Positions 42,464-45,869 of a DNA stretch of 64,000 nucleotides are shown here, one piece after another. This DNA comes from Rhodospirillaceae bacterium. GTDB lineage: Bacteria; Pseudomonadota; Alphaproteobacteria; MPNO01; UBA2964. The stretch covers positions 169,693-233,692 of the forward strand of contig PAPV01000013.1 of assembly GCA_002709075.1 (NCBI GenBank), given 5' to 3'. The position numbers and the translations under genes are program-made. The first letter of the stretch is position 1. Each line of letters opens with the position of its first letter. A model generated the notes under the pieces. That model searched no databases and was not told the origin of the DNA. It saw nothing but the letters and a program-made list of their open reading frames with translations.

Positions 42464-42750
42464 TTTTCAAGATAAAAGAGTGTGTTCAAATTAGGCGGAT
42501 TGCTAAATTATTACAATATTCAACATTTGAATAATACATGATACCGAATTTTACTTTTTAAAGAGTTAATATCCGAATAGTTAGGAGCAATGAATGAGTT
42601 AATTTATATAAAATAAGAACCTGTGTTTCTGACCTCCAATTGCTATTTGTATGACTAAAATATATTTATTTTTCTTACATATCCTGTTTAAGTTTCGCTA
42701 ATTGTTACTAATAAAAGAATGCAGAGCAAACCTTGGAATATAACCATTTT

Positions 42751-44244
42751 TTATTGGTTAGGATTTTCAGGAAATACTAACGATTTTATTGATACGGGAA
42801 CTGCCCCAGACCCCTTCAGTTCAGCGCCAATATCGATATATTGAAACTCATTCAATGTAATACCATCAATAGAGATTATAGGGCCAGTATAATTAATTTC
42901 ATAGCGCGCATGATTCCCAAATACCCTACCTATGTCTCCACTGCACACTAAAATCAATGGTTTTCCGTCAGTTAATACCTCTTGCATCCCTTTAATAACT
43001 CCCGAGATAAAAGATTCAATTCGACCATACACAGCAGATCCATTCCAATCAAAACATAGAGCAACGGGACAGTTTGTTGTGTTTAAACTAAAGGTGTTTA
43101 GTGTGTTAAGAATTGTAGAACAAATAGCATTTTGATCAATTTCGTCAGTTTCGAGCATAAAGTTAGGTGCTATTACAGGTATGTTTTTTTGTGGAAGTAT
43201 GTCAGCCGGATGAATGAAATTAGTTGTTCCTGATAAATTTATTTTGTATTGAGATAATCCCACCACTGTGGCCCGAATACTTTCCACTGGTTCCATAATA
43301 TTTAGATCATGGGCAACAGCCATTGACTTAATTGCGGATGCGAGTTTGGATCCAACATCTATGTTTTGCTGCGTGGAATAATCATAAATATATTCTGCGA
43401 CTCCTCCTGAAAAAGTAACAGCATCAATTGTTCCATTCCATTTGATTGGGGGTAGCCTGTGCAAGTTTTTTGTAAGTCTGGATAGCGGCTTCTGAAGTAT
43501 GATTTCAGTTAGAACAATCCCCATTTTTTTCGCTACCCTTTCAAGGGACTCATCTGTAATATTTGTTCCAAGAACTGGTTGTAATCCGATTTCTTCAAAA
43601 ATTAAGTCTGCATTTTTTTCTATCCTGCAGATACAGCCATTGTCGTTGATAGCGATAAGTCTTGCACCGATATCAACAGTTGTTAAATCGATGATCTCGC
43701 CGTTAGAACAAATAGCAATCTTGGTGGTGCCTCCTCCAATATCTACATTCATAATTGTAGCACCAGTTTCTCTCGAATTAATTATCGCTCCAGATCCATG
43801 CGCCGCCATAATGGCTTCAAGCCGATCACCTGCAGCTACCGATATAAAATTTCCAGTTTCTAAAGAAAATAGCTCACCCAGCATTTGAGCATTTTTTTTT
43901 TCTAAAGCTGTGCCAGTGAGAATCAGAGCGCCTGTGTCCACTTCACGAGGTGATAAATTGGCTGCTTTATACTGTTTTTCAAGAAAGTCGCGTAAAGCAA
44001 ACTCATCAATAATATCCCTGTCTGAGAAAGGCGTTAGGAGAATCTCAGACTCATAAAGCAAACTTCTTTTTGATACCACAAATTGATCGGATGACCGTTT
44101 CATTTCGATTTCGGAAAATACTATATGGCAAGTTGCAGACCCTATGTCTATTCCTACGCTAGTAAGAGTTGTTTGTTGTTCGTCTGCGATATTATGCCCT
44201 GCACCTGCAAAAATAATTCTTCCATTGTCACTTTGCTGTTCCAT
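42751..44244 (-). CDS. EutA-like ASKHA-family ATPase (ethanolamine ammonia-lyase reactivase homolog)
   Basis: SVGIDIGSATCHIVFS N-terminal actin-fold phosphate-1 motif, NVDIGGGTTK phosphate-2 motif, C-terminus VPVSIKSLVFPE. All colinear with E. coli EutA (SVGIDLGTTTTQVIFS / NIDIGGGTS / VPVTVKSLAFPS). Confidence 0.7.
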   Translation of the reverse strand: MEQQSDNGRIIFAGAGHNIADEQQTTLTSVGIDIGSATCHIVFSEIEMKRSSDQFVVSKRSLLYESEILLTPFSDRDIIDEFALRDFLEKQYKAANLSPREVDTGALILTGTALEKKNAQMLGELFSLETGNFISVAAGDRLEAIMAAHGSGAIINSRETGATIMNVDIGGGTTKIAICSNGEIIDLTTVDIGARLIAINDNGCICRIEKNADLIFEEIGLQPVLGTNITDESLERVAKKMGIVLTEIILQKPLSRLTKNLHRLPPIKWNGTIDAVTFSGGVAEYIYDYSTQQNIDVGSKLASAIKSMAVAHDLNIMEPVESIRATVVGLSQYKINLSGTTNFIHPADILPQKNIPVIAPNFMLETDEIDQNAICSTILNTLNTFSLNTTNCPVALCFDWNGSAVYGRIESFISGVIKGMQEVLTDGKPLILVCSGDIGRVFGNHARYEINYTGPIISIDGITLNEFQYIDIGAELKGSGAVPVSIKSLVFPENPNQ

Positions 44245-44247
44245 TTA

Positions 44248-45480
44248 CTATCCACCACTGGAGAAATTCCAAGTGGTATGCTTGTCGTAATATCTGTTTT
44301 CCATTTGATTTTTTGCTCCATTTTTGCTGCATGCTAATTCAAATTCCTCGCGTATGGCCGGATCCTCCATCCAATAAGGTATGGATGTGCCACCAGGTTT
44401 GTTTACCTCTAATACTCCCTCATCGCTCACAAATTCGCCTGGGACGCCGGCTTGCTGGACGCGATGATTATTTGGACCATACCAAGCTAAAATTCGGAGA
44501 GGTTTTTCGCTGCAATTAAAGTGCTGATGAAACCAGCGAATACGTCGGATTGGACAAGCAGAAATCATGCCAACTGCCTCGTACTCAAGTCTCATTACTT
44601 GATCAGCATCGCCATTTTGGCCTGGTGTTGGGCCTAAATCTTCCGGCCAAGTATTACAATAACCCTGACCAGCTATAGATAAAAATACAGCCGCTTCGCC
44701 AGGGTAATACGCTCGCGAATACCGACCTGGAGGATATTCGCTAATGTATTGGTAAAATTTGTTATTGGCCATTTTTGGCTCAATCCTTCGATACCCGGGG
44801 GTGCGGCGATTATCCTTGTAGAGTTCTGTGGAAAAGATATTTGGAATAATGTTTGTTCTCCGCATGGCAAGCCCTCTAGAACAATCTTCTTCAGACCCGC
44901 TAGCAGTCTTGAAACTCTTTTCATCAGGATTGAAGCGCTTTTGAAATAACAACGTGCTGTTGAAAATAATATCCTCATCATCAAACAAGTTGAATACGTT
45001 TGGAGCAGATGTGCCAGCGAGGAGCAGTGCAGGGGTATTTGATGAATTTACTATTTTATGCCTAGCGTTTAACGGAATTGCGAAAAGTGATCCTTTTTCC
45101 CACTCAAATAATTCTGGTTTCTTTTCTTCATTTATCCAAATTTCTGTCGTACCTCTACCTTCTAATACAAAGACAACTTTTTCATAAATATGACGCTCTG
45201 TTTTCAAAGCTCCTGCTTTTGGGACTTCAACTAAATAAGAGCCCCATAGACCTTCCGTCCCAAAAAGCTGGATAAAAGCCCCTCGTCCCCCCATGCGTTT
45301 CCAGTTTCCCAGTGCGACATTTTGTAAGCAGGGAATGGAAATATCCCGAACAATGGGAATTTCTTGTTCTGACATAAACGTATCATATGGGGTTGGGCGT
45401 CTCTGCCATGCGGGGCTTCCAGCATACAAATCGCCATTTGGTTCGTGCCAATGTGGGGCGCCTGCGATATCATGTGGCAT
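44248..45480 (-). CDS. Bicupin-domain protein of unknown function
   Basis: 410 aa; two cupin-like modules, second with HQH....E metal-binding-type motif; 4-nt spacing to the upstream EutA-like gene. Confidence 0.45.
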   Translation of the reverse strand: MPHDIAGAPHWHEPNGDLYAGSPAWQRRPTPYDTFMSEQEIPIVRDISIPCLQNVALGNWKRMGGRGAFIQLFGTEGLWGSYLVEVPKAGALKTERHIYEKVVFVLEGRGTTEIWINEEKKPELFEWEKGSLFAIPLNARHKIVNSSNTPALLLAGTSAPNVFNLFDDEDIIFNSTLLFQKRFNPDEKSFKTASGSEEDCSRGLAMRRTNIIPNIFSTELYKDNRRTPGYRRIEPKMANNKFYQYISEYPPGRYSRAYYPGEAAVFLSIAGQGYCNTWPEDLGPTPGQNGDADQVMRLEYEAVGMISACPIRRIRWFHQHFNCSEKPLRILAWYGPNNHRVQQAGVPGEFVSDEGVLEVNKPGGTSIPYWMEDPAIREEFELACSKNGAKNQMENRYYDKHTTWNFSSGG

Positions 45481-45869
45481 TGCAAATAGTTCCTGGTTTT
45501 ATACACAAGTTTATAAGAAAAAAAGTACACTGCAATTTTTTAAAAAAATAAAAAGTTAATTATCAATTTATTGAATCAAACATCTACGTAAGAAAAAAAC
45601 CCATGTGTTTATTCTGTACGTGTTAATTTCAAAGGAATTTATCCTTTTTTATTATGGTCAAATGAGCATACATGATAACTTATTTACGTCGATTTGTTTT
45701 TTTATGCATGCTTAAGAAAGTATTTGTTATTGTCATTGACCTATGTTTCGTAGAAAATATTGTAAAAAATTGAGGTGCTCCATTGGTAGCTATTTTTTCG
45801 AGTGATTAATGTAGTGATATTGAGACTGATTAAAAACGAAATCAAATATATTAAAAAATTGGAATTGTA

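Follow-up and report, generated by a model that had tools for sequence, protein, structure and literature searches.

What does a protein annotated as EutA, the reactivating factor of ethanolamine ammonia-lyase (EAL), do beside a cupin gene? The question is raised by two adjacent genes in a 64-kb window (the whole stretch of DNA analyzed here) of a marine Rhodospirillaceae metagenome-assembled genome (MAG) that is also present in surface water of Tara station 099. The upstream gene encodes a protein with two cupin barrels (bicupin) that is identical to MBB43700.1 (annotated "cupin"). The downstream gene encodes a EutA-like protein identical to MBB43699.1, which carries the public label "ethanolamine utilization protein EutA" (K04019). 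Our data point to the EutA-annotated gene as a fixed bicupin partner in hundreds of marine and soil bacteria, and to its product as an undescribed ATP-driven helper of cupins. The best explanation, held as a whole with about even confidence, is that the two genes form one operon of a bicupin metalloprotein and a dedicated EutA-family ATPase of the ASKHA superfamily, which would not be an EAL reactivase and would instead act as an ATP-driven accessory chaperone or reactivase of the bicupin. The readings weighed below are not exclusive, and the confidences given for them need not sum to one. The pair is composed of the following elements:

44248..45480, minus strand: bicupin gene, 410 aa, MBB43700.1, the 5' gene of the pair (open reading frame [ORF], Pfam Cupin_2, two barrels in the AlphaFold 2 [AF2] model, Foldseek matches to bicupins)
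44245..44247, minus strand: junction TAA between the bicupin TAG and the EutA-like ATG, 3 bp, shared frame
42751..44244, minus strand: EutA-family ASKHA ATPase gene, 497 aa, MBB43699.1, the 3' gene of the pair (Pfam, NCBIfam, BLASTP, AF2 model)

Both ORFs lie in one frame. At their junction (GGA-TAG-TAA-ATG), the TAA that fills the 3-bp gap is a second in-frame stop for the bicupin, and the two genes are probably co-translated. A preliminary description of this DNA had named a 410-aa bicupin, separated by 3 bp, as the partner of a EutA homolog, and had proposed a survey of EutA-like homologs that co-occur with cupins. The TAG-TAA-ATG junction and the adjacency in 65 of 70 loci bear out the partnership, and the survey revealed a conserved module with two subfamilies.

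Conservation of the bicupin-ATPase pair

The bicupin and the ATPase are co-inherited as a unit in many lineages. Adjacency was counted with tblastn thresholds at loci ordered by how similar they are to the proteins of the window, and in the metagenome scan a bicupin was considered adjacent when it lay within 400 bp upstream on the same strand. EutA-like homologs with 47 to 54% identity (from Alphaproteobacteria, a Binatia MAG, and others) had a ~400-aa bicupin immediately upstream on the same strand in all five loci sampled, the flanks being otherwise unrelated, and a bicupin was also found immediately upstream of the EutA-like gene at locus P0006. The metagenome scan retrieved 80 EutA-like loci with 42 to 54% identity, of which 10 end too early to be judged. 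The bicupin was upstream in 65 of the 70 testable loci and, with a single intervening gene, in one more (66/70). This pairing spans Alphaproteobacteria, Binatia, and Gemmatimonadota. The 59 complete pairs had a median stop-to-start distance of 32 bp, and 8 of them overlap. The pairwise-identity matrices of the bicupins and the ATPases were correlated (r = 0.82, Mantel p = 0.001).

A second, distant subfamily (termed B, the window pair belonging to subfamily A) repeats the association. It was recognized at locus L069 (2870-5842), where a divergently oriented EutA-like gene, 35% identical to that of the window, lies beside a bicupin paralog of ~27% identity. At least 120 of the listed matches have at least 66% identity to the L069 ATPase. 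In all five loci sampled, the ATPase gene is directly followed by a gene for a 370- to 380-aa bicupin, which is the reverse gene order. These bicupins are 29 to 32% identical to that of the window over ~370 residues. Identity is 39% between the two ATPase subfamilies and 33 to 35% between them and Escherichia coli EutA. Since two deep branches with two gene orders have the same kind of partner, a coincidental pairing is untenable.

Subfamily B is abundant in soil Hyphomicrobiales (L069 and L170 to L174, e.g., L171:6001-8676). Its pair is often found downstream of a LigXa-type Rieske oxygenase and a Fer2 reductase, or beside UbiD decarboxylases, and L171 contains three subfamily-B bicupins in a row. 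Bicupins resembling those of subfamily B (26 to 31% identity) also occur frequently beside or a few kb upstream of a subfamily-A bicupin (L011:240-1442, L012 to L014, L054, L022, L085:4917-5942, and L156), and both bicupin types may work together.

The bicupin family comprises 1,392 representatives at an E value of ≤1e-3 (phmmer, 1.84 billion cluster representatives), and 1,417 homologs were found by sequence search. The genome scan yielded at least 597 bicupin loci, with two or three copies in some genomes. Approximately 70 of the 80 nearest bicupin genome loci (50 to 55% identity), which belong mostly to soil Xanthobacteraceae and Beijerinckiaceae, contain no EutA-like gene within 6 kb. In a neighbor-joining tree based on BLOSUM distances, the ATPase-linked bicupins form three separate clades, each of which is uniformly linked. 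The ATPase-free bicupins with 50 to 55% identity adjoin solute receptors of the TctC/Bug family in 61 of 86 loci (L003, L004, and L016 to L088). Multiple bicupins per genome were also noted, with three in Xanthobacteraceae SMAG_U3853 and tandem copies in L003, L018, L055, and L057. The ATPase-free bicupins look like an expanded family of catabolic enzymes with no characterized member. We found no paper on the EutA-like/cupin pair in the open full-text literature, the subscription-only literature being outside this search; matches that joined EutA and cupin were dismissed, as they concern EutQ or the unrelated ectoine EutA.

The two proteins and their proposed relationship

The ATPase belongs to the EutA family over its full length. 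The Pfam model EutA (PF06277) matched residues 26 to 491 of 497 with 386.9 bits (cut-off, 27 bits; E = 1.9e-115), corresponding to positions 2 to 474 of 475 of the hidden Markov model and lying above the gathering score. As the preliminary description had stated, the protein aligns colinearly with EutA of E. coli K-12 (BLASTP, 28% identity over 474 residues, E = 7e-65), and the alignment takes in the family-specific C-terminal third. The following features were assigned to the gene:

44167..44244, minus strand: N-terminal extension, codons 1 to 26, without counterpart in E. coli EutA and disordered in the model
44131..44154, minus strand: ASKHA phosphate-1 motif, G31-I-D33-I-G35-S-A-T38, invariant, also in E. 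coli EutA
43726..43749, minus strand: ASKHA phosphate-2 motif, N166-V-D168-I-G-G-G-T173, invariant
43393..43410, minus strand: ASKHA adenosine motif, S279-G-G-V-A-E284, with S279, G280, G281, and E284 invariant

The segments DIGSAT (33 to 38), DIGGGT (168 to 173), and SGGVAE (279 to 284) do not vary among 43 homologs and E. coli EutA, and the C-terminal VPVxxKSLxF motif, which E. coli EutA also has, is invariant as well. The N-terminal extension (~25 aa) carries a conserved GGRVxFA..RNLADE motif, in which F12 is invariant in the subfamily. To judge from its sequence, the ATPase is intact: none of the nucleotide-binding motifs is missing, and the EutA architecture is complete. The AF2 model (predicted local distance difference test score [pLDDT], 85.8) returned only generic ASKHA folds from a Foldseek search of the PDB, with template-modeling (TM) scores of ~0.3 (Ppx/GppA, HgdC, PilM, MreB, DnaK, and EutJ), the nearest solved folds being Ppx/GppA phosphatases and HgdC. 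We know of no solved structure of EutA itself that could be used for comparison. Sequence and profile searches of the PDB gave nothing useful for this protein, only generic MreB/FtsA matches; the phosphate-2 region is where the MreB, FtsA, and Ppx models match. An HgdC-like Fe-S activator was rejected, as there is no conserved Cys pair and only C179 is conserved.

The scores for the NCBIfam EutA equivalogs NF007991 to NF007994 were all below the respective cut-offs (331.9/598, 226/952, 221.5/769, and 193.5/799 bits), so that the protein was not recognized as an EAL reactivating factor. In addition, 40 positions conserved in both bicupin-linked ATPase subfamilies differ from E. coli EutA. EutA exchanges adenosylcobalamin for Co(II)-cobalamin in EAL (PMC9426561); the primary reference on this protein is Mori et al. 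2004, as cited in PMC11334477. In a tblastn search with E. coli EutB, EutC, EutL, EutM, EutN, EutT, EutH, and EutJ, no match was found in the window. The same queries gave none in 88 loci from genome and metagenome assemblies, 80 metagenomic loci, and 5 subfamily-B loci (~170 in total), and no genomic association with eutB or eutC was thus seen in the window or in these loci. A Pfam scan of the window (the other ORFs of at least 150 aa judged real, minus three of 157 to 172 aa) detected no cob, cbi, btu, bacterial microcompartment (BMC), or eut domains. No cobalamin riboswitch was detected in the window by Rfam, for which the only match was 6S RNA. The preliminary claim that no eutB or eutC, shell, or B12 genes are nearby agrees with these searches.

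It is extremely improbable that this is an ordinary split eut locus, with a genuine EAL reactivase here, its eutBC at another place in the genome, and a cupin that is adjacent by chance. The public label, the strong Pfam match, and the fact that the Eut search of this genome covered the window, not the remainder, would be compatible with it. Against it stand the absence of eut genes from the ~170 loci, the scores far below the equivalog cut-offs, the 40 divergent positions, the bicupin adjacent in 65 of 70 loci, and the second subfamily that repeats this link in reverse order. The EutA-like protein is therefore predicted not to be an equivalog of the EAL reactivase. What these loci contain is a two-gene module, widespread and twice replicated, whose annotation as ethanolamine metabolism is systematically wrong.

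The partner protein is a bicupin by fold. Pfam detected only an N-terminal Cupin_2 domain (residues 83 to 154), and no Pfam model covers the C-domain. The AF2 model (pLDDT, 79; predicted TM score, 0.80) contains two β-barrels, with strands at residues 43 to 157 and 231 to 334. Its best Foldseek matches in the PDB were all bicupins (MncA, OxdC, vicilins, and quercetinase; E values of ~1e-14 to 1e-15), with only ~12% identity and TM scores of ~0.45. Four features of the gene are relevant to its metal sites:

45439..45474, minus strand: conserved N-terminal His motif, H3...H10-W11-H12-E13-P14, invariant in alignment A1 and disordered in the AF2 model
45019..45234, minus strand: N-terminal cupin barrel with the candidate metal ligands E95, H97, E100, and H141 (Pfam, profile alignment)
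44695..44715, minus strand: replaced cupin motif 1, codons 256 to 262, R-A-Y-Y-P-G-E (K-A-H-x-H in the family; H258 to Y, H260 to P)
44479..44790, minus strand: C-terminal cupin barrel, which keeps W316-x-H318-Q319-H320-F321 (AF2 secondary structure)

In the N-terminal barrel, E95, H97, E100, and H141 lie opposite the metal-site motif of auxin-binding protein 1 (ABP1, 1lr5), whose ligands we take to be H57, H59, E63, and H106, in a profile alignment that is weak (E = 0.0016). These four residues are conserved across subfamily A (E100 corresponds to E101 in most homologs), whereas H141 and the N-terminal His tail are not conserved in the subfamily-B bicupins. Residues 1 to 16, which include the His motif, have a pLDDT below 50. 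The motif is retained in 76 of 77 ATPase-free bicupins and is degenerate in 15 of the 61 linked ones, compared with at most 1 of the 77 unlinked ones.

The residues of the C-terminal barrel are the best conserved overall, and H318-Q-H-F is the same throughout both bicupin subfamilies. The family has a textbook pattern here, G-x5-H258-x-H260...H318-Q-H320. The window bicupin, in which K256, H258, and H260 are replaced by R, Y, and P, lacks the complete HxH...H set of metal ligands (Y258, P260) and keeps H318 and H320. The alignment over codons 256 to 262 is ungapped between the invariant G252-R-Y-S and G271-x-G-Y. The HxH was present in all 77 unlinked bicupins and in 51 of 61 ATPase-linked bicupins (128/138 overall), and R-Y-P was found only in the 9 members of a marine clade that includes the window bicupin. 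Since the C-terminal barrel is as conserved as the N-terminal barrel within this clade (76% versus 73% identity), the change is best regarded as remodeling under constraint and not as decay, as far as the alignments indicate.

This replacement raises the possibility that the marine-clade bicupin is noncatalytic or re-tooled, that is, a pseudoenzyme, binding protein, or sensor with a regulatory, storage, or metal-buffering role, and that the pair differs in function from its soil relatives. Such a reading, which overlaps with the proposed helper function and with the enzymatic alternative discussed below, is in our view improbable. It would account for the restriction of the H258 and H260 changes to the marine clade (9/61 linked and 0/77 unlinked), for the fact that the site lost is the one best conserved across both bicupin subfamilies, and for the housekeeping surroundings of the window pair, which, unlike the soil loci, include no transporter or catabolic genes. 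It is opposed by the equal conservation of the two domains in this clade, by the intact H318-Q-H320-F and N-domain E95, H97, E100, and H141, and by the short-chain dehydrogenase/reductase (SDR), VanA-type Rieske, and TctC neighbors of the pair at the marine-clade loci L006 and L011.

The bicupin lies in the cupin superfamily, yet on the searches made we could not place it in any characterized bicupin family. Sequence and profile searches of the PDB found no sequence relative of the protein, ABP1 being the only match. Among gentisate/salicylate-type models, only NF049978 (5-aminosalicylate 1,2-dioxygenase) gave a score, of 16.4 bits versus 650 bits required, and gentisate/salicylate-type dioxygenases were absent from the top 50 Foldseek matches. 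The EutQ-type cupin model (PF06249) did not match at an E value of ≤0.01. A B12-binding DxHxxG motif was rejected, as none was seen on inspection of the sequence. Domain fusions among long homologs (P0280, P0348, P0366, P0380, and others) were uninformative.

Which function, then, would unite the two proteins? The preliminary description had suggested a repurposed function, such as the upkeep of a different radical or metal enzyme. A function that serves a metal enzyme would follow from the orphan status of the ATPase, the conserved bicupin, and the nonequivalog scores, and it fits all the comparative evidence. A chaperone or reactivase is the most economical proposal because the characterized EutA acts on a protein client and because the EutA architecture is kept. 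An accessory role is the most likely one because the ATPase is absent beside close relatives of the bicupin that carry the same conserved residues. As we envisage it, the ATPase would bind the bicupin as an accessory factor, and ATP hydrolysis would open or remodel the bicupin, as EutA does with its client enzyme. A trapped inactive species, such as a wrong or oxidized metal or a tightly bound or dead-end ligand, would then be released and replaced, and the cupin center would end up loaded or reactivated. In the marine clade, in which two C-domain His residues are lost, E95, H97, E100, and H141 of the N-domain would be the only complete canonical site.

The neighbors of related pairs include TctA/TctC carboxylate transporters, Rieske oxygenases of the LigXa/VanA type and their reductase, UbiD decarboxylases, Amidohydro_2, and SDR proteins. 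Such neighbors suggest that the client is an O2-dependent enzyme of aromatic-acid catabolism, and in the soil relatives the client would probably be an oxygen-using enzyme of this kind. Nonheme metal enzymes of aromatic-acid catabolism are inactivated during turnover, as illustrated by XylT and catechol 2,3-dioxygenase.

The main rival explanation is that the EutA-like protein is itself a catalytic ASKHA enzyme, a kinase or ATP-dependent activating subunit that would prepare a small-molecule substrate for conversion by the bicupin, in the manner of hydantoinase, oxoprolinase, or acetone carboxylase-type systems. The ASKHA superfamily holds many small-molecule kinases and ATP-dependent hydrolases, which speaks for this explanation. 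The nearest solved folds (Ppx/GppA and HgdC) likewise include no specific chaperone, tight operon coupling suits enzyme subunits equally well, and catabolic genes surround related pairs. We nevertheless consider it rather unlikely. The only characterized member of the family exchanges a cofactor on a protein client (PMC9426561), and the alignment with E. coli EutA is full-length, including the C-terminal third. Moreover, bicupins with 50 to 55% identity and identical conserved residues lack a nearby ATPase in ~70 loci, which makes an obligatory ATP step in the same chemistry hard to reconcile with the data.

Several points weigh against a bicupin-directed chaperone or reactivase as well. Four of the 70 testable EutA-like loci have no adjacent bicupin, and the assignment of the metal ligands rests on one weak profile alignment (E = 0.0016). 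The residue losses are phylogenetically clustered in the three linked clades and hence represent few independent events. An ATPase from another locus might act in trans on the bicupins that have none nearby, and the argument for an accessory role would then lose force. Finally, the fold cannot tell a chaperone from an enzyme because the Foldseek matches are generic ASKHA proteins with TM scores of ~0.3. As a tentative generalization of the bicupin-directed reading, it is possible, though doubtful, that EutA-family ATPases are general ATP-driven "active-site exchange" chaperones that are not B12 specific, two deep branches of which would serve bicupin metalloenzymes.

The locus and its surroundings

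The pair is flanked by two noncoding regions and two genes transcribed in opposite directions:

45870..47075, plus strand: divergent class I aminotransferase gene (aatA), 5' neighbor of the pair
45481..45869, no strand: divergent intergenic region between the bicupin and aminotransferase genes, presumed promoter of the pair, 389 bp, guanine-cytosine (GC) content of 0.25
42464..42750, no strand: AT-rich spacer from the EutA-like stop to the uvrB start, 287 bp, GC content of 0.26
40352..42463, minus strand: uvrB, 3' neighbor of the pair

The preliminary description had put these spacers at ~290 and ~390 bp, in agreement with the measured lengths and composition. It had also seen the pair as an islet set apart from the surrounding core genes. 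That interpretation did not hold up: the pair has long resided at this locus. The order cupin-EutA-uvrB is kept in two species-level relatives, L009 and L010, in which the bicupins are 76 and 71% and uvrB 83 and 80% identical to those of the window. L010 additionally keeps the SDR gene and uvrC downstream and aatA upstream, and at the P0156 locus (EutA-like protein ~54% identical) the pair is beside uvrB too. No tRNA or repeat signatures were found, and there was no integrase or transposase among the neighbors. Composition, mobility genes, and comparison of the same site in relatives thus gave no indication of a genomic island or islet. With respect to composition, for which a comparison with flanking genes had been proposed, the GC content of the bicupin gene (0.440) is within the range of the window ORFs (mean, 0.425 ± 0.020), and that of the EutA-like gene (0.387) is only ~1.9 standard deviations below the mean. 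The earlier assignment to a reduced genome of the Rhizobiales must likewise be abandoned, as must an origin in Bartonella, toward which the GC content had pointed, the proteins being MBB43700.1 and MBB43699.1 of the marine Rhodospirillaceae MAG.

A recent acquisition of the pair by horizontal transfer, as an islet bracketed by the AT-rich spacers, is accordingly very improbable. The 287- and 389-bp spacers and the GC content of the EutA-like gene could be read in its favor, and the varied contexts of related pairs in other phyla indicate a cassette that has moved over long time scales. These features are outweighed by the synteny in L009, L010, and the P0156 locus, by the GC content of the bicupin gene, and by the lack of tRNA, integrase, and repeat signatures. 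Furthermore, 11 of the 45 intergenic gaps in the window are at least 200 bp long and similarly AT rich, so that long AT-rich spacers are a general trait of this genome and not peculiar to the pair. The gap in L010 that matches the 287-bp spacer measures ~94 bp.

Rfam detected no family in or around the pair, both spacers included. Matches to promoter and terminator consensus sequences at the pair were not above shuffled expectation, and no terminator-like site was found in 42464..42750. The region upstream of the bicupin gene has no motif in common with the upstream regions of L009 or L010.

By Pfam, the window is a region of housekeeping genes, namely, ruvCAB, tolQR-tolB-pal, ftsH, folP, glmM, thiD, moaE/moeA/mobB, pgsA, uvrC, uvrB, trxB, carAB, greA, and dnaG. 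Several other features of the window were noted. A 6S/SsrS RNA (RF00013; 52.8 bits versus a gathering score of 46.4) is located at 14414-14568 on the plus strand, in a 1,538-bp gap (13103-14640) free of ORFs of at least 150 aa. The gene for 5-formyltetrahydrofolate cyclo-ligase lies just 3' of it, in the classic ssrS-ygfA order. In the interval that separates uvrB from the SDR gene, a stretch of 976 bp (39376-40351; GC content, 0.36) contains no ORF longer than 55 aa, tRNA, or Rfam match. The corresponding gap is ~230 bp in L010, and a Na/Ca-exchanger gene occupies this place in the more distant P0156 locus; the stretch may represent the remains of a gene or an RNA that escaped annotation. Another gap of 913 bp (3143-4055; GC content, 0.34) separates a zinc-type alcohol dehydrogenase gene from an OmpA-family gene.

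A 631-aa ORF at 50405-52300 (minus strand) has no Pfam match at an E value of ≤1e-5. It overlaps by 1 base with the gene for a 215-aa 2-oxoglutarate-Fe(II) oxygenase (PF13640; 52300-52947, minus strand), and both are directly upstream of trxB. The two genes are another uncharacterized pair with a metal-dependent oxygenase. Five further ORFs of 278 to 394 aa have no Pfam family at an E value of ≤1e-10 (5412-6566, 6624-7808, and 9286-10362 on the minus strand; 20917-21768 and 23837-24673 on the plus strand). Two of these, in the region of the tol-pal cluster, probably encode TolA- or CpoB-like low-complexity proteins.

Comparison with known systems

The closest characterized relative of the ATPase is EutA of E. 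coli and Salmonella (PF06277, COG4819, K04019), with which it shares the family, the full-length architecture, and the ASKHA and VPVxxKSLxF motifs. ATP-driven work on a partner enzyme is probably the common mode of action. The window ATPase differs from EutA in having a bicupin neighbor instead of a B12 enzyme, with no eutBC, BMC, or B12 genes nearby, and in its ~25-aa N-terminal extension, the 40 subfamily-conserved positions, and the scores below the equivalog cut-offs. If EutA-family ATPases are indeed general exchange chaperones, thousands of database entries named "ethanolamine ammonia-lyase reactivating factor" would be misannotated. In metagenome reconstructions, the K04019/EutA labels in marine and soil Alphaproteobacteria, Binatia, and Gemmatimonadota would falsely imply ethanolamine or B12 metabolism.

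A similar concept is found in DdrAB and GdrAB, Hsp70-like ATPases that exchange damaged cobalamin in diol and glycerol dehydratases. As proposed for the pair, an ATPase of the actin/Hsp70 fold encoded beside its client gene frees an inactive bound cofactor. The window ATPase has, however, no sequence or specific fold match to these proteins, and the window bicupin carries no B12 signature.

The two-barrel cupin fold is shared with MncA, OxdC, quercetin 2,3-dioxygenase, and gentisate-type dioxygenases, and most members of the window family have, like these, cupin motif residues in both barrels. The invariant N-terminal H..HWHEP tail and the identity of ~12% set the family apart from the known bicupins, none of which, to our knowledge, has been reported with a dedicated ATPase. 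The activity of the bicupin, and the reason why only some members need an ATPase, bear on the turnover of aromatic carbon in soil and sea.

Accessory proteins that reactivate or mature metalloenzymes include the ferredoxin XylT (catechol 2,3-dioxygenase), the ASKHA activators HgdC and BcrA, and the GTPase metallochaperones UreG, HypB, and COG0523. The window pair would resemble these systems in that an accessory gene beside that of a labile metal enzyme encodes a factor by which the active metal state is put in place or regained, with other chemistry and from other protein families. HgdC, itself an ASKHA ATPase, was among the fold matches. The window ATPase lacks a conserved pair of Cys residues that could bridge a [4Fe-4S] cluster, with only C179 conserved, nor is it a P-loop GTPase like UreG, HypB, and COG0523. 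Cupin enzymes are notorious for irreversible binding of the wrong metal, and we know of no energy-dependent repair or loading factor for them. What would be new here is an ASKHA ATPase of the reactivase type whose clients belong to a new class, acting through a mechanism that we infer. If the generalization to exchange chaperones is correct, the ATPases that serve bicupins would be the first ATP-dependent reactivases or metallochaperones dedicated to the cupin superfamily, rescuing mismetallated or oxidized nonheme centers that are kinetically trapped in the barrel. An ATPase dedicated to cupins would add a layer to metalloenzyme homeostasis and extend the reactivase concept, as represented by EutA, DdrAB, and GdrAB, beyond B12 radical enzymes.

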